Assembly: GCA_965215195.1 (NCBI GenBank)
Contig: CBDCDC010000002.1
Coordinates: 2,624,001-2,688,000, forward strand
Length of the DNA stretch: 64,000 bases
Source of the DNA: Candidatus Latescibacterota bacterium
Lineage (GTDB): Bacteria > Latescibacterota > UBA2968 > UBA8231
Reading direction: 5' to 3'
Numbering within the stretch: the stretch's first letter is position 1; the number at the start of each line of letters is the position of its first letter. The notes below the pieces were generated by a model. The model had not been told where the DNA came from, made no database searches, and saw only the letters and a list, made by a program, of their open reading frames with translations. Positions 1,441-57,269 of the stretch are shown piece after piece. A program made the position numbers and the translations under genes.

Positions 1441-1461
1441 GGGCAACCCTCGTGGTCGCCC
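1437..1461 (+). repeat. GTAG-type REP-like palindrome
   Basis: GTAGGGGCAACCCTCGTGGTCGCCC overlaps the TAG stop; related copies at 2757-2780 (inverted, degenerate), 11447-11474 and about 62818-62864. Confidence 0.6.
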
Positions 1462-1607
1462 AACCCAAAAAACCCGCGTACTTGCCCACTCGCTGATGGC
1501 GGAGCTAGCTGAGCAAGGGTGGACCACCATCTATGTCAAGAGGGACATGGACGACATAGGGAACGAGATGGTTATGCAGCGGTACAGATACCGACCGTAG
1601 TTCGATT

Positions 1608-1641
1608 AAGAGCGGCGTCAGAGAGTCTGGTGCCGCCTTTT
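1608..1641 (+). terminator. Intrinsic terminator-like hairpin
   Basis: GCGGCGTCAGA-GAG-TCTGGTGCCGC (with G-U pairs) followed by CTTTT, after a short ORF remnant ending at 1600. Confidence 0.5.
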
Positions 1642-1665
1642 CAATTCCGACGCGGAGGATACTTT

Positions 1666-2415
1666 ATGGTTGCCTTAGTTGTTCTTGCAACTCTCGCCAC
1701 GCAGTCCATTGCCCAAGATCAGACAAGAACGGAGAGTCTATCTTTCCCCAATTGGGATGTGGATGTCACGCGGGACATCTTTGGGGTCAGGGAGGTTCTG
1801 TCGCAGACCAAGGGAGAGTATGTCTCAATGGAGGATGAGGCTTCGGGAGTGCTGAGTGCCGAATCGCCTCCCGTGTTCTTTGTTTTGTGTAGGTTTAATC
1901 AGCACAAAGAGTCCTACATAAATGTGGGAGTCAGGCTTCCAGGGACATACTTTGACATACCAGACAACTCCTGTAAGACAGGAGCGGAGGAGTTCTTGGA
2001 GTTCTCGTCTGTTGTTTCGCAAGTAACGGCCATGGTTAAGGATGTCAAAGAAGACAGATTTATACACAATTATAGATTTTTCTATACGGCGAATCCGCGA
2101 ATGTGTGGGAAGTTGAACTGGAAAAAGAAAAAGATGCACGAGTTTAGGGCTGTTCACGACGCGGGGTGGACATGGCTAATCAATAGAGACGACAGACGAG
2201 GGACGTTCAATAAGACGAAGGAGTTGATTAAAAAACAGGATGAACACGGGCGATCTGTGATTGGAGTCTATGAGGAATATCGCGGCATAAAGCTCTCGTT
2301 CAATCTTGCAGGTCTCAAGGATGTCTATAACGCCATGTTTCTTGACTGCGGTGTTCACAAATGGAATCCGAATCTAACTGACCCAGATGAATGGAGAAGA
2401 TATGTATTCAAGTAG
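1666..2415 (+). CDS. Hypothetical exported protein, lower GC (probably foreign)
   Basis: GGAGG RBS at 1654-1658, ATG 1666, signal peptide MVALVVLATLATQSIA; AT-richer codons; no recognisable domain. Confidence 0.7.
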   Translation: MVALVVLATLATQSIAQDQTRTESLSFPNWDVDVTRDIFGVREVLSQTKGEYVSMEDEASGVLSAESPPVFFVLCRFNQHKESYINVGVRLPGTYFDIPDNSCKTGAEEFLEFSSVVSQVTAMVKDVKEDRFIHNYRFFYTANPRMCGKLNWKKKKMHEFRAVHDAGWTWLINRDDRRGTFNKTKELIKKQDEHGRSVIGVYEEYRGIKLSFNLAGLKDVYNAMFLDCGVHKWNPNLTDPDEWRRYVFK

Positions 2416-2436
2416 TATCAGCACGATAGAGAGATA

Positions 2437-2616
2437 CCTTACTACACGACACCTGCCTCCAGCCGCCGGCGGTCGTTTCCGTTTCGGTGCAGGACCTATC
2501 CCCCCGGCCCCCTTTCCGATGCGGAAAGGGGGAGCCGATGCGTTCCCCCCTTTCGCGTCGGAAGGGGGGCTAGGGGGGGTAGGTCAACCAGACAACGCTG
2601 GGGTCGCGTAGTAAGG
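2437..2616. mobile_element. MITE (family A, copy 1) carrying a C/G-rich double palindrome
   Basis: Terminal inverted repeats (TIRs) CCTTACTACACGACACCTG / reverse complement CCTTACTACGCGACCCCAG (16/19); perfect 7-bp direct repeat AGAGATA at 2430-2436 and 2617-2623. Confidence 0.75.
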
Positions 2617-2830
2617 AGAGATACTTAGGGCATGGATCGCCGAGGCTGCCGATCTGCCTTGGTGGCTATTGAATTGCTCATCAACTACATGCGAGTCCGG
2701 TTACTAGATGTATTCAATGCCATATCCTTCAAGGCACCCGATGCCCCGGTCAAGCTAGGACCACCACGGGGTCGCCCACTCACCCTTTAGAAGCCCGACC
2801 CTCACCCCTTTTCCACACCGGAAGGACGCC

Positions 2831-13354: not shown

Positions 13355-15865
13355 TTATCGCGAGACCCTAACGCCTGCTGCTTCGAGGGCGGGGATGTGT
13401 GTGAGCAGTGAAGCCTCATTGAGGGTAGTGATGCCCCGCAGGTCCAGATATGCCAAGTTGGTCAGGCTCAACAACGGACTCACATCCGTAATTGAGGTGG
13501 CACCCAGCCTCAGGTCGGTCAGGCTGGTCAGGCTCGACGCCAACGAACTCACCCCTGTATCCGTAATGCCGGTGCCACCTAGCTCCAGCCATTCCAAGTT
13601 GGTCAGGGTCGACGCCAACGAACTCACCCCCGTATCCGTAATGCCGGTGCCATCTAGGTCCAGCGTTTCCAAGTTGGTCAGGGTCGTCAACGAAGCCACC
13701 CCCGCATCCGTAATAGCGGTGGCTCGCAGCCCCAAGTATTCCAAGTTGGTCAGGGTCGTCAACGAAGCCACCCCCGTATCCGTAATGCCGGTGCCACCTA
13801 GGCTCAGCCATTCCAAGTTAGTCAGGGTCGTCAACGAAGCCACCCCCGCATCCGTAATGCCGGTGCCACCTAGGCCCAGCGTTTCCAAGTTAGTCAGGGT
13901 CGTCAACGAAGCCACCCCCGCATCCGTAATGCCGGTGCCACCTAGGTGCAGCCATTCCAAGTTAGTCAGGGTCGTCAACGAAGCCACCCCCGCATCCGTA
14001 ATGCCGGTGAAACCTAGGTCCAGCGTTTCCAAGTTAGTCAGGGTCGTCAACGGACTCACATCCGCAAGATCTTGGTTGCTGCTCAGGTCCAGCCTAGTCA
14101 GCGCCGTAGCGTTTTCGAGGCCGGTCAAGTTCTGAATGTTTAGGCTGCTTGCCTCGAGCTCCGTTAGGGATTCCAGATCGGTGGCTGTAAGCGCGCCTGT
14201 CGGTTGATTCAGCGCTTGCCGCACCGCACCCTCCAGATTTGCGTCGGCGAAGAACATCTCTGGCACGGAGGGCCTTCCGTCCACTCTGTAGTTCGTGCCA
14301 GAGGACACACTCCACGAAAGGTCTGCGTCGTTTCCTGCCTCATCGGTTATGGAAGACCCGATTGGAATAATCAAAGTCCCCGCGCGAACCCATATCACCC
14401 CGTCGAAGTCGAAGTCGTCCGCTTGGACCGTGTATGCGAAGTATAGCCGCCTGCCGGAGCTCTCGTCATACTCCGCCGGACGAGGATCACTGCCGAAACT
14501 GCCTATTTCGACTCCTATTGTCGGGCTTCCGCCCGCCGTGTCCACAATGAGGTTTTCAGAGAACTCAGCCATCACCCATATCACTTCGTCCCTGCGGAAC
14601 GTGTGTCCGTCCTCCGGAACGCTTACGATATCAGGCGTCCCACTAAGCTGTGGTGGAGTCATATCCGCAAGGCTGCCGTCAACTCGGTGGTTAGCCTGAG
14701 ATGGAACCGCCGCGTGGGAAAGGTCAACATTAACCCCGGATTCGAACCGTATCGCATTGGCCGCAATGCTCACTCCATCGCCGTCCATGTCGTCCGCACT
14801 AACTTGGTACTCGAAGCTCGTGGTGCGCCCGTCGATGCCGAGGCCGCACCGCCTAGCCCACGCATTCCTGACCACAGCTAGACCGCTGCCGGTCTGAAAC
14901 GTGAGTTCAATGTAACCACTGCGACAAACTAGCTGGCTAAAGCCGACCTCAATTTCGATGATGTCGTTTTCTGCATAGGTATCCACTGCGTTATCTTCGT
15001 CAGAATCCCTACTCGGAATCGAGACGATCGTTGGGCCTCTCGTAATGTACGCCAGTGGTTGCGGTTCGGGTTGCGGTTCGGGTTGCGGTTGGACGGCCGG
15101 TTCGGGTTGCGATAGGACCAGTGAGACAGTGACGTCCTTTTCTACCAAGGTGGGAACTTGGTCGGCGAGGTCAGAGCCTCGAATGCCAGTATCCACCAAG
15201 CCCAGCCAGTCTAAAGCGGTCAGGCTATCCAATGGAGCCACATCTTCCACCTGAGTTTTGCTCAGATTCAGCATACGCAAGTCGGTCAACCCCGCCAACG
15301 GAGCCACCTCTGCCACCTCGTTGCCCCACAGGTTCAGGAAGGTCAGGTCAGTCAGCCCGGCCAACGGACTCACATCCGCCACCTCGTTGCCCCACAGACT
15401 GAGCCATCGCAGGTTGGTCAACCCCGCCAACGGAGCCACATCCGTCACCTGATTGTCGCCCAAGTTCAGAAAGGTCAGGTTGGTCAACCCCGCCAACGGA
15501 CTCAAATCCGAAATCTGGTTGCCATACAGGTTCAGCGTGTCTAGCGCCGTCGCGTGTTCGAGGCCGGCCAAGCTGTGAATGGTCGGCACGTCTTGCCATT
15601 CTACGTCCAGCCGCGTCAGGGAGGCCAGATCGTCGGTGGTCAGCGGCCCTTCGGGTTTTTTCAGGGTTCGCCGCACCGCCAGCTCCAGATTGGCGTCGGC
15701 AAACGAGACGACGGCTGGCGCGGTACTATCGGCGTCGGCCGACGCGGTGGCTTTGCCCACCGGCTCCGGGGCCGTCGGCGGCTGGTCGGCACAGGCCATC
15801 CAAGTAATCACTACGCCTACAACGACGAAAACCCGCATGGCTTTGGTGCGCTTCACTAATGGCAT
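13355..15865 (-). CDS. Leucine-rich repeat lipoprotein: two LRR blocks flanking two Ig-like repeats
   Basis: GGAGG RBS; lipobox-like WMAC; 22-aa internalin-like LRRs; 24/25-aa LRRs (LExLxLGGTGITDAGVASLTTLTN); both blocks capped by FADANLExAVR. Confidence 0.9.
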   Translation of the reverse strand: MPLVKRTKAMRVFVVVGVVITWMACADQPPTAPEPVGKATASADADSTAPAVVSFADANLELAVRRTLKKPEGPLTTDDLASLTRLDVEWQDVPTIHSLAGLEHATALDTLNLYGNQISDLSPLAGLTNLTFLNLGDNQVTDVAPLAGLTNLRWLSLWGNEVADVSPLAGLTDLTFLNLWGNEVAEVAPLAGLTDLRMLNLSKTQVEDVAPLDSLTALDWLGLVDTGIRGSDLADQVPTLVEKDVTVSLVLSQPEPAVQPQPEPQPEPQPLAYITRGPTIVSIPSRDSDEDNAVDTYAENDIIEIEVGFSQLVCRSGYIELTFQTGSGLAVVRNAWARRCGLGIDGRTTSFEYQVSADDMDGDGVSIAANAIRFESGVNVDLSHAAVPSQANHRVDGSLADMTPPQLSGTPDIVSVPEDGHTFRRDEVIWVMAEFSENLIVDTAGGSPTIGVEIGSFGSDPRPAEYDESSGRRLYFAYTVQADDFDFDGVIWVRAGTLIIPIGSSITDEAGNDADLSWSVSSGTNYRVDGRPSVPEMFFADANLEGAVRQALNQPTGALTATDLESLTELEASSLNIQNLTGLENATALTRLDLSSNQDLADVSPLTTLTNLETLDLGFTGITDAGVASLTTLTNLEWLHLGGTGITDAGVASLTTLTNLETLGLGGTGITDAGVASLTTLTNLEWLSLGGTGITDTGVASLTTLTNLEYLGLRATAITDAGVASLTTLTNLETLDLDGTGITDTGVSSLASTLTNLEWLELGGTGITDTGVSSLASSLTSLTDLRLGATSITDVSPLLSLTNLAYLDLRGITTLNEASLLTHIPALEAAGVRVSR
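13520..14050. repeat. Near-identical 72/75-bp tandem repeats encoding the C-terminal LRRs
   Basis: Repeated GTCAGGGTCGTCAACGAAGCCACCCCCGCATCCGTAATGCCGGTG. Confidence 0.9.
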
Positions 15866-20030: not shown

Positions 20031-22367
20031 TCACTTGAGATAGATCACGCGGCGCGTCTGCTTCCCGCCCGGATAGTGCAGACATGCCACATAGACGCCA
20101 GCCGCCACCGCAACACCCCGCTGGTCGCGGGCATCCCAAGGAACCTGATATACGCCAGCGGCTTGGACGTGGTCAACCAGTGTGCGCACGGGCTGACCTA
20201 AGACCGTGTAGATCGCCAGCCGCACCGGACCGGGCGCAGCCAAGCGGTAGGGGATCTGGGTAGTACTGTTGAAAGGATTGGGGAAACTGGGATCTAGGCC
20301 GCTGGTGGTCGGCATCGCCGGCTGTGGCGTTCCGGCTACCGCCGTGGCAGTGGGATCGAATAATGGATAGCCGGGATTGCCGGACAGGTTGAGCCGTTGC
20401 AGCGCCGGCAATTCGCTAAACGCATCCGCAGGCAATGTCTCAAGAGCATTGAAGCGCAGATCGAGCCGTTGCAGGGACCTCAGACCGGAAAATACATCGG
20501 CAGACAACGACCTAAGGGCATTGGCGGACAGATCGAGCCATCGCAGGGACCTCAGACCGGAAAACACACCGGGCGACAACGACGCAAGAGCATTGTCCCA
20601 CAGATCGAGCTGTCGCAGCGACGACAGACCCGAAAACACACCCGCAGGCAACAATGCAAGAGTGTTGCCGCCTAGAGAGAGCGTTTGCAGGGACCTCAGA
20701 CCGGAAAACACACCGGGCGACAACGACGCAAGAGCGTTGTCCCACAGAGTGAGCGTTTGCAGGGATATTAGACCGGCGAACATGTCGGCAGGCAACGACG
20801 CAAGGACATTGTTGTTCAGATGAAGCGTTTGCAGCGACGACAGATCGGCGAACACACCGGCAGGCAACGTCTCAAGGACATTATCGTTCAGATGAAGCGT
20901 TTGCAGCGACGACAGATCGGCGAACACATCAACGGGCAACGACGCAAGGGCATTGTCGTACAAATTGAGCCGTTGCAGCGACGACAGATCGGCGAACACA
21001 CCGGCAGGCAACGTCTCAAGGGCATTATCGTTCAGAGCGAGCAATTCCAGCGACGACAGACCCGAAAACACACCAACAGGCAACGTCTCAAGGACGTTAT
21101 CGTTCAGAGCGAGCAATTCCAGCGACGACAGACCCGAAAACACACCAACAGGCAACGACACAAGGGCGTTGTCTTGTAGGTAAAGCCTTGGCAGCGATGT
21201 TAGATCCGAAAACACACCGGGCGGCAACGACCCAAGGGCGTTATCGAACAGAGTGAGCGCCTCCAGTAACGGCAGCCCCGAAAACACGTTTTCCGGCAAG
21301 GACGTGAGAGCGTTACCGGACAGAGTGAGGGATTGCAGTGAACTCAGATTGGAAAACACACCGGGCGGCAACGTCTCAAGGGCGTTGTTGTTCAGGTCAA
21401 GCAATTGCAGCGACGACAGACCCGAAAACACACCAGCAGGCAACGACCCAAGAGCGTTGCTAGACAGAAAGAGCAATTGCAGTGAGGTCAGATTGGAAAA
21501 CACACCGGGCGGCAACGACCCAAGGGCGTTACCGGACAGCCTGAGTCTTTGCAGTGAGGTCAGATCGGCGAACACACCGGCGGGCAATGTCTCAAGGGCG
21601 TTACCGGACAGCCAGAGGAATTCCAGCGACGACAGACCCGAAAACACCCCAACTGGCAAGGACGTAAGAGCGTTATCGGCTAGACCGATCCTTTGCAGGG
21701 ACGACAAACCGCTAAACACATCCGCAGGTAATGACTCAAGACTGTTGTCGGACAGACCGAGCGCTTGTAGGGACGACAAACCGCTAAACACACCCGAAGG
21801 CAACGACCCAAGAGCGTTGCTGGACAGCCAGAGATCTTGCAGGGATGACAGACCGGAAAACACGCCCGCTGGCAACGACTCAAGGCTGTTGTAGGCCAGA
21901 TTGAGCGATTGCAGTGAGGTCAGACCGGAAAACACATCGGGCGGTAACGACTCAAGAGCGTTCTCGTACAGAGTGAGCGTTTCCAGAGACGACAAACCGC
22001 TAAACACACCCGAAGGCAACGACCCAAGAGCGTTGCTGCGCAGAGTGAGCGTTTCCAGAGACGACAAACCGGCGAAATCGCCCGCCTGTAGGCTCGAAAT
22101 TCCTCTATGCCTGAGGAACAGTTCGCCGGTAATCGCGGCAAGTTTCTCTTCGGTCACTCCCGCACAACCGCCGACGCGGGAAGTCCGCTTGAGAATGGCC
22201 TGTTGTACCTGCGGAGTGCGGTCACAGATGCCGCCAGGGGTCGTCTGCGCCCAGGCAACTCCACTAAAAGTCTGGACGAAGAGGACGAAGAAGCAAAGCG
22301 CACCCGCTGCTATAGCTCTATTGGCGGGGACCTCCGTTTTATCCGTCTCAGCAGTTAGCCAGTACAT
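20031..22367 (-). CDS. Secreted LRR protein (about 24 typical-class 24-aa repeats) with FlgD-Ig/T9SS-like CTD
   Basis: LPxGVFSGLSSLxxLxLxxNAL repeats, Cys N-cap ICDRTPQV, C-terminal FPNPFNSTT..Y...G.V.L.IY...GQ.VRTLV; start uncertain (22367 or 22442). Confidence 0.9.
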   Translation of the reverse strand: MYWLTAETDKTEVPANRAIAAGALCFFVLFVQTFSGVAWAQTTPGGICDRTPQVQQAILKRTSRVGGCAGVTEEKLAAITGELFLRHRGISSLQAGDFAGLSSLETLTLRSNALGSLPSGVFSGLSSLETLTLYENALESLPPDVFSGLTSLQSLNLAYNSLESLPAGVFSGLSSLQDLWLSSNALGSLPSGVFSGLSSLQALGLSDNSLESLPADVFSGLSSLQRIGLADNALTSLPVGVFSGLSSLEFLWLSGNALETLPAGVFADLTSLQRLRLSGNALGSLPPGVFSNLTSLQLLFLSSNALGSLPAGVFSGLSSLQLLDLNNNALETLPPGVFSNLSSLQSLTLSGNALTSLPENVFSGLPLLEALTLFDNALGSLPPGVFSDLTSLPRLYLQDNALVSLPVGVFSGLSSLELLALNDNVLETLPVGVFSGLSSLELLALNDNALETLPAGVFADLSSLQRLNLYDNALASLPVDVFADLSSLQTLHLNDNVLETLPAGVFADLSSLQTLHLNNNVLASLPADMFAGLISLQTLTLWDNALASLSPGVFSGLRSLQTLSLGGNTLALLPAGVFSGLSSLRQLDLWDNALASLSPGVFSGLRSLRWLDLSANALRSLSADVFSGLRSLQRLDLRFNALETLPADAFSELPALQRLNLSGNPGYPLFDPTATAVAGTPQPAMPTTSGLDPSFPNPFNSTTQIPYRLAAPGPVRLAIYTVLGQPVRTLVDHVQAAGVYQVPWDARDQRGVAVAAGVYVACLHYPGGKQTRRVIYLK

Positions 22368-32435: not shown

Positions 32436-33157
32436 GTACGCGCAAAACGGCCTGCTGATTTCCAGCGGGAAACCAACAGGCCGCTCTTAGCCCTTTCTAC
32501 AACGGCTTGTTGCGCTAGGCGAACAGCGCTGCGACTGGCACCTCCCACCCCGGCACCACCTGCCCTCCCTTCAGCACATCGCCTTCGCGCAATACATCCA
32601 CAGCATCCGAGGTTCGATGCACCGCCACCGTGCGCTGCCGTGGCTCGACGACCACCACCATCTGCGTCCCAGCCGCCAGCCAAGCGGCCACCTTTTCCGC
32701 CACTTCCCCGTAGCGATCTCCCGGCGAGACCACCTCCACCGCCAAATCGGGTGCGCCCGGCCAATAGCCGACCACCGCGCCGACCGCATCTAACCGCGCT
32801 TGGCACACAAAAGCCGCATCCGGGGCCCGCACCGTGTCCGGGTCCGACCCCAGCCGAAACCCCGTCTCCGCCGCATACACCACTCCTAAGCGGTTGGCCA
32901 GCACGTGCTGACCCAATGATACGGTCACCAACGCGGAGATCTTGCCGTGTTCATTGCCTGCTGGCGTCATCTTGTGCAACTCCCCGCGCACCAGTTCGTA
33001 GCGAAAACCATCGTCTGGCAACCACTCTAGTTCGGCCGCTGTGGCCACTTGTTCGACCATCGTCATAGGCTATCGTCCTCGCCCCCTTCATCTCAAGTGG
33101 AGAGCATCGCCTCCGCACCTTATATAGAAAGGATGGACATGTCCGAAAAACTGCCCC
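32436..33157. repeat. Segmental duplication, copy 1 (copy 2 at about 35321-36080)
   Basis: Shared hairpin CGGCCTGCTGATT..AAACCAACAGGCCG, Uma2 gene, upstream blocks and GAAAGGATGGACATGTCCGAAAAACTGCCCC. Confidence 0.85.
32515..33066 (-). CDS. Uma2 family endonuclease
   Basis: RYELVRGEL..M.PAG.EHG, VRAPDAAFV, APDLAVEVVSP, KV..WL.AG. Confidence 0.92.
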   Translation of the reverse strand: MTMVEQVATAAELEWLPDDGFRYELVRGELHKMTPAGNEHGKISALVTVSLGQHVLANRLGVVYAAETGFRLGSDPDTVRAPDAAFVCQARLDAVGAVVGYWPGAPDLAVEVVSPGDRYGEVAEKVAAWLAAGTQMVVVVEPRQRTVAVHRTSDAVDVLREGDVLKGGQVVPGWEVPVAALFA

Positions 33158-35060: not shown

Positions 35061-35087
35061 AGCTCTCCTTTCGTTGTTAGCTCACTC

Positions 35088-35213
35088 GCTAAGTACACGA
35101 CAGTAGGGCCTTACCCTCGGATCGAGGGCATCTTGCCCTCGTCGAGGGCGGGACGCCCTCGATCCCGGACTCATCGCCCATTAACGACAAGTTATCGGTG
35201 TCGTGTAGTTAGG
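35088..35213. mobile_element. MITE (family A, copy 2) carrying a GAGGGC..GCCCTC double palindrome
   Basis: TIRs GCTAAGTACACGACA / reverse complement CCTAACTACACGACA; flanks CTCACTC / ATCACTC (6/7). Confidence 0.7.
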
Positions 35214-35368
35214 ATCACTCGACACACCCTGCGCCTTGTTGCCGGCCGGTGGCTTGGACGGTCCAGAACCGCCAATCTGCGCTTCCACGACCTCAAGCGG
35301 CGCAAAGATCGCCTTCAGCGGTACGCGCAAAACGGCCTGCTGATTCCCAGCGGAAAACCAACAGGCCG

Positions 35369-35920
35369 CTAAGCGAACAACGCCGCGACCGCCACCTTCC
35401 ACCCCGGCACCACTTCCCCGCCCTCCAGCACATCGCCTTCGCGCAATATATCCACAGCGCCCGAAGTTCGATGTACCGCCACCGTGCGCTGCCGTGGCTC
35501 GACGACCACCACCATCTGCGTCCCAGCCGCCAGCCAAGCAGCCACCTTTTCCGCCACTTCCCCGTAGCGATCTCCCGGCGAGACCACCTCCACCGCCAAA
35601 TCGGGTGCGCCCGGCCAGTAGCCGACCACCGCACCGACCGCATCTAACCGCGCTTGGCGCACAAAAGCCGCATCCGGGGCCCGCACCGTGTCCGGGTCCG
35701 ACCCCAGCCGAAACCCCGTCTCCGCCGCATACACCGATCCCAAGCCATGGGCCTCCACGTGTTGTGCCAAGGGCCAAGCAACGCGCATCGCGATTTTTCC
35801 GTGTTCATTGCCCGCAGGCACCATCTTACGCACCTCCCCACATACTAATTCGTAGCGAAAACCATCGTCCGGCAGCCGTTCCAAGTCCGCCGCCGTGGCC
35901 GTATGTTCGACAATTGTCAT
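35369..35920 (-). CDS. Uma2 family endonuclease (paralogue of 32515-33066)
   Basis: Same motifs; C-terminal two-thirds nearly identical to copy 1. Confidence 0.92.
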   Translation of the reverse strand: MTIVEHTATAADLERLPDDGFRYELVCGEVRKMVPAGNEHGKIAMRVAWPLAQHVEAHGLGSVYAAETGFRLGSDPDTVRAPDAAFVRQARLDAVGAVVGYWPGAPDLAVEVVSPGDRYGEVAEKVAAWLAAGTQMVVVVEPRQRTVAVHRTSGAVDILREGDVLEGGEVVPGWKVAVAALFA

Positions 35921-49454: not shown

Positions 49455-49505
49455 ATGGGGCCTCAATTTGAGGCCCCATCCCACCAACTTGCTGTACAGC
49501 GGCTG
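49455..49505 (-). repeat. Conserved post-stop cassette, copy 1
   Basis: ACAGCAAGTTGG linker, then hairpin ATGGGGCCTCAA/TTGAGGCCCCAT. Confidence 0.8.
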
Positions 49506-52500
49506 CTACCTGAGCAGCAGCATCTTCTTGACTTCGCGGAACTCGCCGCCCGCCTGCAAGTGGTAGAAATACATCCCCGACGACAAGCTATGGCCGCGGT
49601 CGTTCGTCGCGTCCCACTCCACCACGTAGCGACCAGCACTCTGGTGCTCGGCCACCAGCGTCCGCACCGCCTGACCGACTGCGTTATAGACGATCAACTC
49701 CACATCCGCCGCGGTCGGCAACGCATACTGGATCGTCGTCGTTGGGTTGAACGGATTCGGGAAATTGTTCGCCAAGGAGAACGCTTCCGGCCGCGTTTGC
49801 ACTACGGCTTTCGCCGCCTGCTCCGCTCCCGGGTCGCTCAGCGCGATCTCTACCTCGTCGCCTTCTAGCCCATCAATCGTACCGATCAGCCTGATGATCT
49901 CGTCGCCTTCCTCCAAGTTGTCGGCTCTTGGGTCGATGTAAAAATTCACCGTCCCTGTTATCGAGCCGGCCGGAATCTCAATCACAGGCGTAAATAGCGC
50001 GGCGTAGTCCAAATCGCGCGTCGCGGTCGAAGCGTCGTCAATGGCCAAGCGCACGGTCGCGTCCTCTGCCAACGCCTTGCCGTCCAACGTGGCGGTCACC
50101 GCAACAGTGGTCAAAGCGGCATTCTCACTCAACGCGTTCGGATCCGCCGACAGCGAAATGGACGTACTGGGCGTTTCGTCGTCTCGGATCTCAATGTCCG
50201 CCAATAGGGTCTGGCCTGTTGACACGAGCGTGGCCTGCACACCCAAACCCTTCAGACCCTCTTCAGTATCGTCGTTAATGGGCGTGAGGGTCAGAGTCGC
50301 CGTTCCCTCGGTAGTGCCCGCTGGAATGGTGATAAGCGCCTCCAACTCCGCCATGTAGTCCACATCGCGCATCGCGGCTGGGCCGTCGCTGGGAGCCACA
50401 ATGGCAAACCGCACGCTCTCGTCAGCCACTGAGGCGGCCGCCAAGGTAAAAATTAGCGAGACTTCAGTCTCGGCCGCGTCCTCTCGAATCACCGCCGGCT
50501 CTGCCGTCAACCCAGCGGCCACAACCGGGGGCAGCCCAGTTGTACGGACCGTGATGGAAAAGGTCAATTCCGCGGCGTCCCTGTTGCTGTCGGTCACCAT
50601 GTAGGTAACTGGGACCGGACAGTCGGTCGCTGCGGCCGGCGTACCCGAAAGCGTCCGCGTGACCGAGTCAAACGCCAAGCCCGCCGGCAGGGTCAAGACG
50701 CGGTACCGCAGGTCGCCAGCACCGCCCATCGCTTCCGGCAGCACCAAGTCGGCAATAGCCGTCCCCGCCGTGTACGTCTGGTCGGCGATGGAAGCTCTGG
50801 CCGAGAAGGCCAGCACGGCCCCTTTCTCAGCACTTGTAATGGTGAAGGTCAGCATGGCCGTGTCGTCGTCATCGTCAATCGCCGTGTAGGTGACGGTGAC
50901 CGCGCCGTTAGTTGCTTCGGCCGGCGTACCCGAAAGCGTCCGCGTGGCCGAGTCAAACGCCAAGCCCGCCGGCAGGGCTGAGATGCGGTACGTCAGGGTG
51001 CCGTCGCCACCCGAAGCCTCCGGCAGCACCAAGTCGGCAATAGCCGTCCCCGCCGTGTACGTCTGGTCGGCGATGGAAGCTCCGGCTGAGAAGAAAGGCT
51101 CGCCGCCTTCGCCGGGATCTTTCAGCGTTATATCTACAATGCCGACTGTCACCGTGATGTCGGCATCGCCCGCATCGGCGGTGATTTGATTGTTGGCGGA
51201 CGGCACGGTCAGCCTGATTTTCTCGTCGCCCTCCACGATCCCGTCGTCAATAGGGATGACGGTAATCGTCGTCGTCCCCGACACCGAGCCGGCCGGAATC
51301 GTCAGCGGACGCAGTGCTGCCGAGTAGTCTATATCGCGCGTCGCCTCAGCAACGTCGACGACCGTGCCAATAGCGTCCGCATCCTTGGGATCGGGGTCAA
51401 TGGTCAAGAGCACGACCACGTCATCGTCAAACACTTTCCCGTCCAAAGTTCCGGTCACCGCAACATGGGTCGCGCCGGCCCCTTCGCTTATCGTAGCCGG
51501 CTCCGCCGTCAGCGAGATATTCGTGCTATTCGCGTCGTCATCGGCGATGACTATCGTTTTAGTCGCCGATACGTCGCCGATCGCGACTTTTATATATATC
51601 GGCCCTCGCGGAACCACCGCGTTGTCGTCAATAGGGATGAGCGTGAACGTCGTCGTCCCCGACACCGAGCCGGCCGGAATGATGAGCGGCGGACCAAAGA
51701 CCAGCCTGTAATGCACATCGCGCGTCGGAGTGCCCGTCACAGTATCCCCAGACGGCAAGACCGCGCCATCGGGCAAAATCACGAGCCTCACCGTCTCGTC
51801 CTCGATCAAGGCATTCGTCAAGGTGACTTTCAGCTCGATCGTCGTCTCACCGGCGTCCTCGCGCACCCTCTCTTGACTAAGCGTAATGGCATCGGCCGTG
51901 GCCGCGACCTCCTTCCTCATTCTTATATCCACAGGCCTGAGCGTTAGCCCATCGTCTTCGATCTGTATTCCCGGGGCGTCCTCATCGGTATCATTATCAG
52001 GAGACGCTATCCGGATGGTGCCAGGTAACCGATTTTTTGGGGTGAGGATAATGGTCGCCGTCCCGGACACCGAATTTCTCGGAATCGTGAGCGTCTCCAG
52101 CGTCACCGTATAGTCCAAATCGCGCTGCGCTTCGCGATTGTCCTTAGTCGCATCCGCAGCGTCGATAGTGCCGTTGCCATCGGTATCGGCGTTGGGATTG
52201 GCCCCCAAGTCGGGATGATCGCCAATGGTCAAGACGAAACTCGTCGCCTGTCTCAGCACCTTGCCATCCAAGGTTGCCGTCACGGCGATCTCGGTCGCAT
52301 CATCGAACCTATTTAGCTCGACAATATCGACCGACAGATTGATGTTTCTGCTATCCTTGTCGTCGTCAACTAGCGTGATCGTCGTCAGCTCAACCGTCTT
52401 AATGCCAGCATTGCCGCGGATCTCAATAGGAAGGTCTTCGTCAACGACATCATCGTCAATGGGGATGAGGGTGAGGGTCCCCACTGCCTTTTTTTCGCCA

Positions 52501-52787
52501 GCCAGAATTCTGAGAGCGGTCAGCTTTATGCGGAAGCGACTATTGAGCCCCTCATGGGAGACACCCAAGAGCACATACGTATCCGCATCCACCACTGTAT
52601 CATCAGTAACTTCGACTGTCACCTCGATATCGGTCGCACCGGCGTCCTCGCGGACACTACTAGGATTCACCGACAGTTTTAAGTCCGACTGCGCCGCAGC
52701 CTCCCCGCTCCATCCCAACACCCAACCAGCGGCCAACAGCCAAGGCACAGAGGCCAGACGCTGCATCAACAACTTCGCATGTATCAT
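49506..52787 (-). CDS. Large secreted modular protein (Calx-beta-like repeats, putative Ig domains, FlgD-Ig/T9SS-like CTD)
   Basis: GGAG RBS, signal ..GWSGEAAA; P..(V/I)REDA..T.V.V / A.RD.DY repeats; LPAGLAFD..TRTLSGTP; NFPNPFNP..KKMLLLR. Confidence 0.88.
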   Translation of the reverse strand: MIHAKLLMQRLASVPWLLAAGWVLGWSGEAAAQSDLKLSVNPSSVREDAGATDIEVTVEVTDDTVVDADTYVLLGVSHEGLNSRFRIKLTALRILAGEKKAVGTLTLIPIDDDVVDEDLPIEIRGNAGIKTVELTTITLVDDDKDSRNINLSVDIVELNRFDDATEIAVTATLDGKVLRQATSFVLTIGDHPDLGANPNADTDGNGTIDAADATKDNREAQRDLDYTVTLETLTIPRNSVSGTATIILTPKNRLPGTIRIASPDNDTDEDAPGIQIEDDGLTLRPVDIRMRKEVAATADAITLSQERVREDAGETTIELKVTLTNALIEDETVRLVILPDGAVLPSGDTVTGTPTRDVHYRLVFGPPLIIPAGSVSGTTTFTLIPIDDNAVVPRGPIYIKVAIGDVSATKTIVIADDDANSTNISLTAEPATISEGAGATHVAVTGTLDGKVFDDDVVVLLTIDPDPKDADAIGTVVDVAEATRDIDYSAALRPLTIPAGSVSGTTTITVIPIDDGIVEGDEKIRLTVPSANNQITADAGDADITVTVGIVDITLKDPGEGGEPFFSAGASIADQTYTAGTAIADLVLPEASGGDGTLTYRISALPAGLAFDSATRTLSGTPAEATNGAVTVTYTAIDDDDDTAMLTFTITSAEKGAVLAFSARASIADQTYTAGTAIADLVLPEAMGGAGDLRYRVLTLPAGLAFDSVTRTLSGTPAAATDCPVPVTYMVTDSNRDAAELTFSITVRTTGLPPVVAAGLTAEPAVIREDAAETEVSLIFTLAAASVADESVRFAIVAPSDGPAAMRDVDYMAELEALITIPAGTTEGTATLTLTPINDDTEEGLKGLGVQATLVSTGQTLLADIEIRDDETPSTSISLSADPNALSENAALTTVAVTATLDGKALAEDATVRLAIDDASTATRDLDYAALFTPVIEIPAGSITGTVNFYIDPRADNLEEGDEIIRLIGTIDGLEGDEVEIALSDPGAEQAAKAVVQTRPEAFSLANNFPNPFNPTTTIQYALPTAADVELIVYNAVGQAVRTLVAEHQSAGRYVVEWDATNDRGHSLSSGMYFYHLQAGGEFREVKKMLLLR

Positions 52788-52839
52788 TATTAGTCTCCCC
52801 AGGGAACAACTCTCTAATAAGAGTAGGTATGATATTAAG

Positions 52840-52900
52840 AAATAGGGCCTCAAGTTGACGTTTGAGGCCCTATTTTGCTAACTCGCTGTGCCGTGAGTGC
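52840..52900 (-). repeat. Conserved post-stop cassette, copy 2
   Basis: GCACTCACGGCACAGCGAGTTAG, then hairpin AAATAGGGCCTCAA/TTGAGGCCCTATTT. Confidence 0.8.
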
Positions 52901-55900
52901 TTACTTGAGCAACAGCATCTTCTCGACTGCGGCGAACTCTCCCCCGGCCTGCAGGCGGTAGAAATACATCCCCGACGATAAGCTGTGCCCGCTGTCGTCG
53001 GTCGCGTCCCACTCCACCACGTAGCGACCGGCGCTCTGGTGCTCGGCCACCAGCGTCCGCACTGGCTGCCCGACGACGTTGTACACGGTTAGCTCCACGT
53101 CCGCCGCTTGCGGCAGCGCGTATCGGATGGTCGTCGCCGGGTTGAACGGGTTCGGAAAGTTGTTCGCCAACGCAAACGCGGCCGGCAGCGTCTGCAACGA
53201 TAGCGACGCGCTCGCGCCGTTGGCGTCCGTAACCGCGTACGTATATGCGAACTCACCCTCGGCCATCGGCGTACCCGCAATGGTCCGCGTGGCCGCGTCA
53301 AACGACAAGCCCGCCGGCAGGGCCGGCGAGAGGTGATACGTCAGGGGTGCGGTGCCGCCCGAAGCCTCCGGAAGCGCGAAGCTCTCCACGGGCTGGCCAA
53401 CGATGAATTCGCGGATTTCAACCAAGTCGGGCGAGCCCGTCGGAATGACCTTACCGGCCACACTGCCGAACAATTCGAAAAACTTTGCAAAACTCAGCGG
53501 GGGATTGACCGTGATGGAGAAGGTCAACGCGGCCGCGGTGCCATCGCTGTCGATGACCGTGTAGGTGACGACGACCGCGCCATTGGTCGCTTCCGCAGGT
53601 ATGCCCGCAATGGTCCGCGTGGCCGCGTCAAACGACAAGCCCGCCGGCAGGGCCGAGACGCTGTACGTCAAGTCGCCCGTGCCGCCCAAAGCGGCCGGCA
53701 GTACGAGATCGTCAATCGCCCCCTCGGCCGTGTACTCTTGGTCGGCGATCGAAGCGTCGTCCGCGAAGGCAAGGGACGAATCCTTCGGCTCCTGCGGCGG
53801 CTCCGGCTCCGGCTCCTGCGGCGGCTCTACCGTTGCTCGGTCGCTCAGCGTGATCTCCACCTCGTCTCCGACCAGACCTGCAATCGCACCGGTCAGCCTG
53901 ATGGTCTCGTTGCCCTCCGCTACAGTGTCGTCAATTGGTTGGACTGCAAACAGTATTGACCCCGTTATCGAGCCGGCCGGAATCACGAGCAGCGGCTTGA
54001 ACAGCGCCACGTAGTCCACATCGCGCGCCGCTGTTGACGCACCATCAATGGACACGGTCACGGTTGTGTCCTTTAGCAACGCCTTCCCGTTCAACGTAGC
54101 AGTCACCGTAATAGCGGTCTCACCGCCTTCCTCGCTTACCGTGCGCGGACTCGCCGACAGCGAGATGGACGTACTAGGCGTTTCGTTGTCGGCAATTTCG
54201 ATGTCCGTCAATACAGTCGCACCAGAAGCGAATGTAGCTTGCACACCTAACACTCTCGGGCCATTCGCCTCGGCGTTGTCAATGGGGTTCAGGGTGAGCG
54301 TCGTCGTCCCAACGGTAGCACCGGCCGGAATGGTGCTGACCGCCCCCAGTACCGCCGTGTAGTTCAAATCGCGCACGGCCGGCGTACCCGCACTTGGAGC
54401 GACAAGCGTGAACGTCACTCTCTCGGCCGTGGCCTTGGGAGCCGCCATGGTCACGGTCAGGAAAATTTGCGTGGTTTCAGCGTCCTCGCGGATCGACGAA
54501 GGAGCCGCCGTCAGCTCAGCGTCCGCAACCGGGGGCTGGGGCGGCGGCGGCGTCTCAGTCGCCTCGACCGCGATGGAGAAGGCCAACGCGGCCGCGGCCC
54601 CGTCGCTGTCGATCACCGTGTAAACGATGCTGGACGTTCCGGCCACTGTCGGCGTACCCGAAAGCGTCCGCGTGGCCGCGTCAAACGCCAAGCCCGCCGG
54701 CAGGGTCGAGACGCTGTACGTCAGGGTGCTGTCGCCGCCCGTAGCTTCCGGCAGTACGAGCGCGGCAATCGCGGTCCCAACCGCGTACTCTTGATCGGCG
54801 ATCGAAGCGTCGTCCGCGAAGGCAGGGATCTTCGGATCCGGCGGCTCTGGCTGCGGCTCTTCGTCCTCGGTGTCTTTCAGCGTTATCGTCGCTGGAGTGA
54901 CCTCCAGCTCTTGGAGGTCTCCGTCATCATCTTCGGCTATGGGCGGTTTAGACGCCAGCGTCGTCAAGCGGAACTTCTCGTCGTCTTCCTCCCCGTCGTT
55001 GGCGGTGGGCGTGACGGTGAACGTCGTCGTCCCCGACACCGAGCCGCCCGGAATCACCAACGGCCTCGGGATGGCTGTGTAGTCTGCATCGCGCGTCGCC
55101 GCCATATCATCGTCATTCACCTCGCCATCGCCATTAATATCGTTATCAATGACCAAGGGCACGATCACGTTATCGTCGAACACCTTCCCGTTCAAGGTGC
55201 CGGTCACCGTAACCTCGGTCGCACCCGCTCCCTCGTTTATCTCGGCCGGACTCACCTCTAACGTGATCGAATCGCTCGTCGTGTCGTCGTCGGTAATCAG
55301 GATTCCGGTGACGAAGGATTCTTGGGTTCCAACCCTCGCATTCACCTTGAAAGCCCTCGGCGGATCATTGTCTTTGTTGTTGATGGGGGTGACGATGATC
55401 GTCGTCGTCCCTTCTGTCTCGCCCTTGGGAATGATGAGCGGCTGCGGTTCCGCATAGTAATCCACATCGCGCTCCGCATCCACCGCGCTATCGAAAGCCT
55501 CGCCCAGACCGTCGCTGTCGTCATCAATAGTGAACTGCACCTTCTCGTCAGCCAACAAGGCGTTCTCCAAGGAAACTTTCAGGGTGACCTCCTTCGCCCC
55601 CGCGTCCTCGCGGATTGAGAAAGGAGTCGCCGTCAGCCCGGTAATCTCTTTAGCGGGATCGCCCGTTATCTCGATTGAATTAGCATTAACCGTTATGGGA
55701 GTGTCCTCGTCATTAGTTAGGCCGGCGTCAGAATCAGCCTCCACCCAGATAAAGCCGGTTCCGTCGCCCGTTCCTTCGTCCTTGGGGCGGATGATAATCG
55801 TTGCCCTCCCCGACACCTTGCGATCTGGAATGGTTATGGTGGCCATTATCGCAGTGTAGTCCAAATCGCGTCTCAAGCCAGATGCTTCACTTCTTGCTTC

Positions 55901-56872
55901 ATCAATAGTTAAAGAAAAACGCAGATCTTTTCTTTGCTTCTTGCCATTTAGGGTGGCCGTCACCACGATATTGGTTGTACCATCCCTCCTGCTTAGATCG
56001 GCATCAGAGAACGAAAGATTGATCTCACTGCTTTGCTTATCCGTGTCGATCAGCGTAATCGCTGTACTCTTGACGACCCTATCAGCGGCGGCGTTACCCT
56101 CAATCGCGATAGTGAGATCATTGTTGTCGGTTTCTTCACTAATGGGGGTGAAGGCGATCGTCCCGGTCGCCTCTTTCTTGCCCTTCGGAATCAGGAGGGT
56201 GGGCAGCGTTATGCGGAAGCGACTATTGAGCCCTGCGGATTCTCCGAGACCCAAGACCACATACGTATCCACATCCACCGCTGTATCATCAGCAACTCTG
56301 ACTTTCACCGCGACATTGGTTTTACCGGCGTCCTCGCGTACACTATTGGGATTCACCGACAGAATATAGTCCGCCCGCACCGTTATCTCCGATGCAAAAT
56401 ACGTGGGGATAGAACTAGCACCGTCACCGTCGACCTCCACCTTCATCCTTACCCAATACATACCAGTATTAATATCGGCGTCAGTAAAGGTGTGGGTGCT
56501 GTTGCTGCTACTATACTCCGCTTCAGAGCCGCCGATGGGGCCTGAAGCGGTAGTAAGATCAGAAGGAATCGCACCCGAATATAAACCCACCGTGTAGGAG
56601 GTGGCAGGGTTCCCATTATCCGCACCAGTGCCGAAATTCTGCGAATCAGACGTACTCCATTCCACAGTAATCGAATGGGGCCACGCGACCAAGTCATAAG
56701 TCAAAACCAAATTGGGATCGGTGGCATGAGGATGATCCGCCGCAGTGCTATGACCTGACGTAGCGTTCACATCAGCCGCAGCCTCCCCGCTCCATCCCAA
56801 CACCAAACCGACGGCCAGCAGCCAAGGCATGTAAGCCAAGCACCGTATCAACAACTTTGTATATATCATCAC
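52901..56872 (-). CDS. Large secreted modular protein, paralogue with an extra N-terminal domain
   Basis: GGAGG RBS; similar signal peptide and repeat order, three Ig repeats, NFPNPFNP..EKMLLLK. Confidence 0.88.
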   Translation of the reverse strand: MMIYTKLLIRCLAYMPWLLAVGLVLGWSGEAAADVNATSGHSTAADHPHATDPNLVLTYDLVAWPHSITVEWSTSDSQNFGTGADNGNPATSYTVGLYSGAIPSDLTTASGPIGGSEAEYSSSNSTHTFTDADINTGMYWVRMKVEVDGDGASSIPTYFASEITVRADYILSVNPNSVREDAGKTNVAVKVRVADDTAVDVDTYVVLGLGESAGLNSRFRITLPTLLIPKGKKEATGTIAFTPISEETDNNDLTIAIEGNAAADRVVKSTAITLIDTDKQSSEINLSFSDADLSRRDGTTNIVVTATLNGKKQRKDLRFSLTIDEARSEASGLRRDLDYTAIMATITIPDRKVSGRATIIIRPKDEGTGDGTGFIWVEADSDAGLTNDEDTPITVNANSIEITGDPAKEITGLTATPFSIREDAGAKEVTLKVSLENALLADEKVQFTIDDDSDGLGEAFDSAVDAERDVDYYAEPQPLIIPKGETEGTTTIIVTPINNKDNDPPRAFKVNARVGTQESFVTGILITDDDTTSDSITLEVSPAEINEGAGATEVTVTGTLNGKVFDDNVIVPLVIDNDINGDGEVNDDDMAATRDADYTAIPRPLVIPGGSVSGTTTFTVTPTANDGEEDDEKFRLTTLASKPPIAEDDDGDLQELEVTPATITLKDTEDEEPQPEPPDPKIPAFADDASIADQEYAVGTAIAALVLPEATGGDSTLTYSVSTLPAGLAFDAATRTLSGTPTVAGTSSIVYTVIDSDGAAAALAFSIAVEATETPPPPQPPVADAELTAAPSSIREDAETTQIFLTVTMAAPKATAERVTFTLVAPSAGTPAVRDLNYTAVLGAVSTIPAGATVGTTTLTLNPIDNAEANGPRVLGVQATFASGATVLTDIEIADNETPSTSISLSASPRTVSEEGGETAITVTATLNGKALLKDTTVTVSIDGASTAARDVDYVALFKPLLVIPAGSITGSILFAVQPIDDTVAEGNETIRLTGAIAGLVGDEVEITLSDRATVEPPQEPEPEPPQEPKDSSLAFADDASIADQEYTAEGAIDDLVLPAALGGTGDLTYSVSALPAGLSFDAATRTIAGIPAEATNGAVVVTYTVIDSDGTAAALTFSITVNPPLSFAKFFELFGSVAGKVIPTGSPDLVEIREFIVGQPVESFALPEASGGTAPLTYHLSPALPAGLSFDAATRTIAGTPMAEGEFAYTYAVTDANGASASLSLQTLPAAFALANNFPNPFNPATTIRYALPQAADVELTVYNVVGQPVRTLVAEHQSAGRYVVEWDATDDSGHSLSSGMYFYRLQAGGEFAAVEKMLLLK

Positions 56873-56924
56873 TCAACCTCCTTGAGGAAAGCATCCCTAT
56901 AATTGCCTGTTGGTTTATAGTCAG

Positions 56925-57030
56925 GAAATGGGGCCTCTCTCAAACTGAGGCCCCATTTCACTAACTCGCTGTGGCGTGGGTGCTTACTTACTTGAGCAGC
57001 AGCATCTTAACTGCGTGGAACTCGCTCCAT
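56925..57030 (-). pseudogene. Orphan CTD tail (last 12 codons) plus cassette copy 3
   Basis: SEFHAVKMLLLK-TAA, then GCACCCACGCCACAGCGAGTTAGT and hairpin GAAATGGGGCCTC/GAGGCCCCATTTC; no gene body upstream. Confidence 0.7.
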
Positions 57031-57209
57031 TTGTCAAAGATATTGCACAAGCCCTGTCGTAGCAAGCACAGACAAGAATGGACTTTGAAAATTACATGGG
57101 CGGCGAGGGACGGACCGGCGCAGTCTCGCGTCGTATCACCCTCCAGCCGCCGCGAGACTAGTTTCAACAGGCGGAAAAGTGCTTTGAAACCGAATCGGGT
57201 TGAATAGTA

Positions 57210-57269
57210 AAAGGGGACCCCACCTTGCGGTTTGAGGTCCCCTTTCACTAAATCGCTGTGCAGTGGGTG
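57210..57269 (-). repeat. Conserved post-stop cassette, copy 4
   Basis: CACCCACTGCACAGCGATTTAGTG, then hairpin AAAGGGGACCTCA/TGGGGTCCCCTTT. Confidence 0.8.

Follow-up and report, generated by a model that had tools for sequence, protein, structure and literature searches.

As described in the accessible text of Minnick 2024 (PMC10969869), type II MITEs resemble their autonomous IS only at the ends. They carry target duplications, lie between genes and are strongly folded. QMITE2 of Coxiella burnetii is a MITE with terminal inverted repeats (TIRs) and direct repeats of 7-11 nt, and it contains a REP (PMC5896051, Wachter 2018). REPINs are hairpins of inverted REP doublets identical to the repeats that flank RAYT genes, and REP singlets come from doublets (PMC3116915, Bertels and Rainey 2011; bioRxiv 10.1101/2021.07.10.451892). 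In the accessible text of these two sources, which concern RAYT groups 2 and 3, REPINs are viewed as distinct from MITEs, as decaying without RAYT and as rarely crossing hosts. Some of the GTAG and CGTC repeat families are without a dedicated transposase, and "a broad spectrum of transposases" was suggested to move them (PMC3733652, Di Nocera 2013). The IS10 subgroup of the IS4 family has CT ends, a 9-bp duplication, the YREK motif and a single DDE transposase in 1200-1350 bp (Table 1 of PMC2266710, De Palmenaer 2008).

We analyzed a window of 64,000 nucleotides from a Candidatus Latescibacterota genome (G000; 6.13 Mb in 2 contigs, 95.2% complete). It contains two short elements (Table 1). Both are probably type II MITEs that are moved in trans by IS10-like IS4-family transposases encoded elsewhere and that hold captured host palindromes as passenger cargo, which in element 2 would be a RAYT-derived REP. 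The interiors are pieces of host DNA with palindromic repeats and not IS remnants.

Table 1. Parts of the two elements, in window positions
Feature	Position	Strand	Remarks
Element 1 left target duplication	2429..2437		9 bp; identical to 2616-2624
Element 1	2438..2615		178-bp IS4-family (IS10-like) MITE; interior single-copy among the genome's paired elements
Element 1 left terminal inverted repeat	2438..2453	+	begins CT
Element 1 cargo	2493..2585		C-tract/G-tract palindrome doublet; one long hairpin
Element 1 right terminal inverted repeat	2600..2615	-	
Element 1 right target duplication	2616..2624		9 bp; 9/9 match to left copy
Element 2 left target duplication	35080..35088		9 bp; 8/9 match to right copy
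Element 2	35089..35212		124-bp MITE; belongs to a 30-copy family (family 1)
Element 2 cargo	35119..35165		REP doublet (REPIN-like)
Element 2 right target duplication	35213..35221		9 bp

The first-pass annotation described the two elements as MITE shells with a shared TIR, 7-bp flanking direct repeats and unrelated palindromic interiors, and it saw no transposase in the window. The shared TIR is present in both, but its first base belongs to the duplication and the ends begin with CT. The duplication is real but longer than claimed. Genome-wide position matching led us to reject the 7-bp length, as the 7 bp are the core of a 9-bp duplication. The unrelated palindromic interiors were found where they had been placed. 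No transposase was detected among the 11 ORFs scanned near the two elements; the cognate transposases are elsewhere in the genome. The end motif has 5 matches at two or fewer mismatches in the window, against 0.68 expected, and none of 100 shuffles reached 5. Both elements are predicted to fold strongly, with z = -10.9 for the whole of element 1 and z = -8.4 for element 2, whose inverted doublet forms one hairpin.

The window contains several other features. A lone IS701-type end lies at about 24054 on the - strand, and a lone IS5-type end at about 22381 on the + strand. Two Uma2-family (PF05685) paralogues (32513-33066 and 35367-35920), 94% identical over 300 bp, bracket the genes next to element 2. 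The stretches 13400-15550, 20313-22125 and 49467-59551 contain long genes that include tandem units of 72 bp and 66 bp, and three large repeat proteins paralogous to one another.

The genome-wide search for further inverted end pairs with duplications that the annotation had proposed returned, under our own pairing rule, 119 short paired elements of 48-338 bp and one full-length pair of 1167 bp. The interiors of these 120 fall into 25 clusters (62, 30, 4, 2 and 2 copies and 20 singletons), and those of the 119 short elements into 24. Element 2 is in the 30-copy cluster and element 1 is a singleton (cluster 14). The 1167-bp IS clusters with no short element, and one pair of 243 bp is just the tip of the IS itself. 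Median divergence between copies is 5.9% for 28 copies of 152 bp and 3.2% for 17 copies of 124 bp. Eight of the 119 short elements lie inside ORFs, by crude ORF calls. Some MITEs in G000 are nested within other MITEs.

Of the 120 paired elements, 66 carry a perfect 9-bp duplication and another 14 carry one with a single mismatch. Where the 7-bp core is good (85 elements), each of the nine positions matches in 80-84, and the next positions outward match in 5 and 8. The target sites have a symmetric, A/T-rich border. Exact matches to the end motif number 208 in G000 and 79-89 in three congeners, and there are none in 4 of the 31 congeneric genomes. The elements show the features of type II MITEs: ends shared with an autonomous IS, duplications of variable sequence, empty sites, short non-coding multi-copy units and an interior unlike the IS. 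Minimal elements with little beyond the two ends are also present (29 bp IS701-type and 48 bp IS4-type; C2:1472392-1472420, C2:2043942-2043970 and C2:2473509-2473556).

Full-length IS with the same ends, which the annotation had suggested seeking, are encoded in G000. The ends of element 1 match those of two of them. IS-A (C2:1118368-1119532) contains 1165 bp and has a perfect 9-bp duplication. IS-B (C1:201671-202843) contains 1173 bp and has none. Their transposases score 201 and 185 bits, respectively, against NF033591 (IS4 family; cut-off 152). They are 48% identical, and both contain the YREK motif (Y-2-R-3-E-6-K). CT ends, 9-bp duplication and YREK fit the IS10 subgroup, as does the single DDE transposase; the sizes are just below the 1200-1350 bp typical of it, and the placement is by features, not phylogeny. 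In the IS4, IS701 and IS5 partners the transposase gene runs into the right terminal repeat and stops inside or at it (L001:302-1399, L002:356-1474, L294:233-1291 and L296:1428-1862).

The MITE ends match those of IS-A and IS-B over 17-21 nt, and then the likeness stops. Element 2 has one IS-A-like end and one like the right end of IS-B. This mixed pair is present in 31 of the 119 short elements; at 30 loci examined, no full-length element whose ends could be paired has it. In the 62-copy family (family 0), the second end is matched by the left end of L480, a third element. To judge from their ends, simple deletion within a single IS did not give rise to the shells. They may have been assembled from stray ends by deletion and by insertion of one element into another. 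An unsampled IS that carries such an end pair could also account for the mixed-end shells.

Empty sites in relatives, also proposed by the annotation, were found for members of the families, but no exact one was found for either window element among relatives or contigs of 4 public runs. In G001 (800 kb searched), both flanks were recovered for 4 of the 119 sites. One is an exact empty site with a single 9-mer, one is a probable empty site and two are uninformative. Within G000, 10 of the 119 elements have a paralogous locus, and 5 of these are empty with a 9- or 8-base overlap. Around element 1, a whole 1.37-kb block (window 1442-2810) is missing from 29 relatives. It consists of a 298-aa ORF (1519-2415, no Pfam match) and the element. 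Contigs of the 4 public runs contain joints at which the entire block is left out (1442-2810 in three runs, 1443-2819 in one), and two of the runs also contain the block; no joint in them removes the MITE alone. At most a 0.10 share of the words occurred in RNA runs. Around element 2, 22 relatives differ across the entire intergenic stretch. Matching ends, 9-bp duplications and empty sites together suggest movement in trans.

The doublet in element 2 is identical to that beside RAYT genes at two loci (L410 and L411), and it matches an in-frame copy in the DUF1156 methylase gene of G000 (C2, about 1800.7-1803.8 kb; 1800700-1803800). At a Y1 transposase locus of G012 (L041), inverted copies of the same hairpin family are on both flanks. 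The RAYT of this locus passes NF047646 with 95 bits (cut-off 80). The hairpin with its foot adjoins 42 of 80 metagenomic relatives of this RAYT and none of 400 base-shuffled controls. The foot beside these relatives is a GGGA-type motif, and the 5' GTAG/GTGG tetranucleotide foot is absent from the element 2 hairpin. Inverted palindromes flank the RAYT genes at L041, L408-L411, L491 and L492. What element 2 carries is a genuine REP doublet.

Among the 31 congeners there are 4 RAYTs over the cut-off. These and the RAYTs of L410 and L411 are all in frames of 1,200-1,290 aa. The frame at L041, the one scanned, is DUF1156 methylase-like, and the remaining frames align with the G000 homologue. At the site that holds REP-RAYT-REP in L410, L411, L491 and L492, the G000 homologue has the doublet only, in frame, and the G012 homologue has nothing inserted. 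Searches of G000 with PF01797, NF047646 and tblastn (5 RAYTs as queries) detected no RAYT, although at 95.2% completeness one could be absent from the assembly. With no cognate RAYT found there, the cargo is REPIN-derived and not a working REPIN in this genome. The methylase site in G000 may have lost its RAYT, or the doublet may have come alone. REP-flanked RAYT genes in frame within DUF1156 methylase-like genes were observed at L410, L411, L041, L490, L491 and L492. The records span several phyla, and the insertion site is not always the same. A tyrosine transposase inside a defence-type gene contrasts with the view of RAYTs as rarely moving.

We located 195 REP loci in G000. Of these, 125 are enclosed by the two ends of an IS4-, IS5- or IS701-type shell, 51 adjoin one end and 19 adjoin none. 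For 2000 random places the counts were 3, 24 and 1973. Many of the 19 loci without a shell end resemble decayed shells by eye; one is the methylase copy, and another adjoins a paralogous methylase fragment. Almost all REP copies in G000 are passengers. Both hairpins are kept in 46 of 69 copies of family 0 and 25 of 35 copies of family 1. The copies with a single hairpin retain either one (12 and 9 in family 0, 5 and 3 in family 1), which points to recurrent loss from a doublet. The doublet is the ancestral state in the shells. Across the 31 congeners, 1-6 doublets are present in six genomes and none in 22. Three genomes have many, two of them with no RAYT over the cut-off (85 in G000, 30 in G042) and one with such a RAYT (76 in G040), so shelling does not require loss of the RAYT.

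The same hairpin family is also carried by shells of other types. A second shell in G000 has a 3-bp TWA duplication (34 pairs, 22 in one cluster). Ends related to it are on elements of 856-870 bp (8 of 30 loci), in which a downstream ORF matches an IS5 model below the cut-off, as a half protein. No partner was identified for the high-copy AGAAGCGGTCTG shell. We provisionally label this shell IS5-type from its likeness to the GAAGCTGTTGAG ends and its 3-bp TWA duplication. The full-length IS5 copies, with a 313-aa transposase, were rejected as partner because their ends differ. A shell with a 7-bp duplication carries a variant of the doublet in G002 and G012, with both ends seen at 3 of 7 loci and one end at the rest. 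Its full-length partner is in G000 and encodes an IS701-family transposase (354 bits, cut-off 250). At one locus (L139), a REP doublet has an IS4-type end on its left and an IS701-type end on its right, possibly as a chimeric intermediate. Further palindrome types, including GTAG-footed hairpins, are in IS701- and IS5-type shells of congeners (L284, L288, L289, L293, L298 and L323).

A scan for the exact doublet in one genome per species returned at least 92 stretches, of which 80 are listed. Among the matches listed, it occurs in records named Latescibacterota, Binatia, Thermodesulfobacteriota and Gammaproteobacteria. The Binatia record has 13 of its 14 loci, among the 80 matches listed, in a 183-bp shell with 10-bp duplications. 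The partner of this shell contains 1,993 bp and encodes a 591-aa protein with PF13808. We take the 10-bp duplication and the PF13808 protein to mark the ISAs1 type. ISAs1-type ends are absent from G000. The same shell type has a second family, of 370 bp, with other palindromes, which is the pattern of the first-pass annotation in another phylum. Three Ca. Foliamicus records hold 20 doublet loci among the matches listed, with no IS-type ends as judged by eye. In the two tested, a RAYT over the cut-off is flanked by hairpin arrays.

Outside the palindromes, the flanks of the doublet do not resemble one another significantly from one shell family to the next (13 pairs, p 0.02-0.73 uncorrected) and are alike within one shell type (2 pairs, p 0.001). 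Unlike flanks could mean independent captures or divergence past recognition. The same doublet in several shell types with unlike flanks suggests that shells captured palindromes repeatedly. The flank comparison gives no support to one shell-swap series, with common ancestry of all doublet-bearing interiors.

The cargo of element 1 behaves differently in this respect. Its C/G-tract doublet was found at 13 loci from four congeners. Eight are in an IS5-type shell (7 in G012, 1 in G038), 2 are unshelled (G012/G005) and 3 are off-pattern. The 5' flank of this doublet is common to the IS4 and IS5 shells (17 of 19 bases, p 0.0005), which makes a shell swap or a common donor likely, rather than independent capture. 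The palindrome of element 1 was not found beside the 30 Y1 transposase loci searched. An unshelled C/G-tract hairpin is also present elsewhere in the window, at about 62920.

We considered three other explanations of the elements. The elements could be REPINs moved by an HUH enzyme, with ends and direct repeats incidental, and the cargo of element 2 is indeed a real REP doublet. This is very improbable. The 9-bp duplications of variable sequence in 80 of 120 elements and the exact empty sites with one 9-mer refute it, the ends are identical to IS4 ends, and no RAYT was found in G000. It is unlikely, to a lesser degree, that a RAYT put REP doublets into pre-existing MITEs as safe landing pads and that the filled MITEs were then amplified, with cargo exchangeable in a fixed shell. 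MITE insertion into MITEs in G000 does indicate that intergenic repeats serve as landing pads. RAYTs flanked by the element 2 hairpin are present in 3 of the 4 congeners with a RAYT over the cut-off, by our own pattern, with a related hairpin in the fourth. Copies without cargo exist as well (113 bp in G000, 131 bp in G043), but they retain part of the REP foot, and a short repeat marks their junction, which is what later deletion would leave. Either hairpin may be the survivor in single-hairpin copies, a sign of recurrent loss from a doublet, and no precise pre-insertion shell family free of cargo was seen. Cargo swapping within a fixed shell is not supported here, and repeated capture is favored instead. 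The proposal in the first-pass annotation of a nested system, in which MITE shells capture or spread palindrome families, is supported by the same ends around several unrelated interiors, the cognate IS4-family transposases, the empty sites and the RAYT-flanking REP cargo. Its word "interchangeable" gives way to "independently captured", since none of the shell families yielded a precise version free of cargo and the cargo-less copies resemble later deletions. The pattern is also wider than it saw, with one cargo in shells of several IS families.

The hairpin could instead be selected cargo. It might aid transposition or tolerance of the MITE (through pairing of the ends, stabilisation of transcripts or insulation), or the host might keep a REP function with DDE transposases replacing the lost RAYT. 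The two largest interior clusters in G000, by loose linkage (114 IS4-type and 60 IS5-type copies), both bear the hairpin, and the other 18 have 1-5 copies. With only two or three founders, hairpins in the large clusters cannot separate advantage from chance, and with few independent families founder effects suffice. Within family 1, few parts vary less than the doublet, and it was captured repeatedly, in four shell types. Against this, strong stems are enriched only weakly and not significantly (5 of 20 coarse interior clusters versus 68 of 600 random intergenic pieces), copies without one or both hairpins still carry duplications, and the doublet is patchy across the genus. By crude gene calls, convergent gene pairs are not in excess (14 of 111 versus 293 of 1709), and on that ground a terminator role of the hairpin was rejected. 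We regard selected cargo as improbable, slightly more so than insertion into landing pads. The cargo is most likely a passenger and not a required part.

Under the reading that we prefer, MITEs with captured passengers, the REP doublet of element 2 would derive from the RAYT cassette lodged in frame in the DUF1156 methylase gene. REP copies would have spread during the presence of the RAYT. Short IS ends, often from two IS lineages, may then have come to bracket one REP copy via nested insertion and deletion, and a DDE transposase would have amplified the resulting shell. The RAYT would later have been lost. Unshelled REP copies would have decayed, leaving nearly all survivors as passengers. 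Separate captures of the same kind may have taken place in IS5-, IS701- and ISAs1-type shells.

A broader and doubtful possibility is that REP doublets have a second, RAYT-independent life cycle. The RAYT cassette, crossing phyla in frame inside a defence-type methylase, would seed the doublet, and IS4, IS5, IS701 and ISAs1 transposases would repeatedly wrap it in stray-end shells, with the hairpin favoring capture or amplification. If true, this cycle would supply interiors for type II MITEs in general and let REP families outlive and escape their RAYT. More generally, the elements bear on the source of unrelated type II MITE interiors and on the persistence and spread of REPs without a dedicated tyrosine transposase. 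G000 is a traceable case, with a RAYT-less doublet at the home locus, 85 doublets mostly in DDE shells and the same cargo in other shells and phyla. RAYT activity cannot be read off the number of REPs in a genome. This is selfish-DNA biology from known parts, with no host function shown.

No paper on one REP doublet in several IS-family shells was found in the literature covered, outside which lie most subscription journals and supplements, and the accessible text of PMC3184786 and PMC6006769 contains no such case. The G000 elements share with type II MITEs the IS likeness limited to the ends, the duplications, the intergenic position and the strong folding. Unlike those in the accessible text of PMC10969869, they have an interior that can be traced to the REP doublet of a RAYT cassette. 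In one G000 family, the ends match two different IS lineages, and one cargo recurs across the shells of several IS families. QMITE2 is likewise a MITE with TIRs and direct repeats that holds a REP. In PMC5896051, whose main text is without the word RAYT, the REP is interpreted as a truncated MITE, whereas in G000 the REP appears to be the older unit, with a RAYT home locus and several captures. The doublet of element 2 resembles a REPIN in that it is an inverted REP hairpin identical to RAYT-flanking repeats. Unlike the published REPINs, which belong to RAYT groups 2 and 3 and may not be of the group of this RAYT, it is abundant in G000 with no RAYT found, lies inside DDE shells and occurs in records of several phyla. 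The GTAG and CGTC families are also palindrome families of which some lack a dedicated transposase. The foot of the element 2 hairpin has neither tag, and the accessible text of PMC3733652 does not describe DDE shells. Type II MITEs and a REP-containing MITE (QMITE2) are already in print, and what appears to be new is a REP cargo that is traced to a RAYT cassette and recurs across the shells of several IS families.
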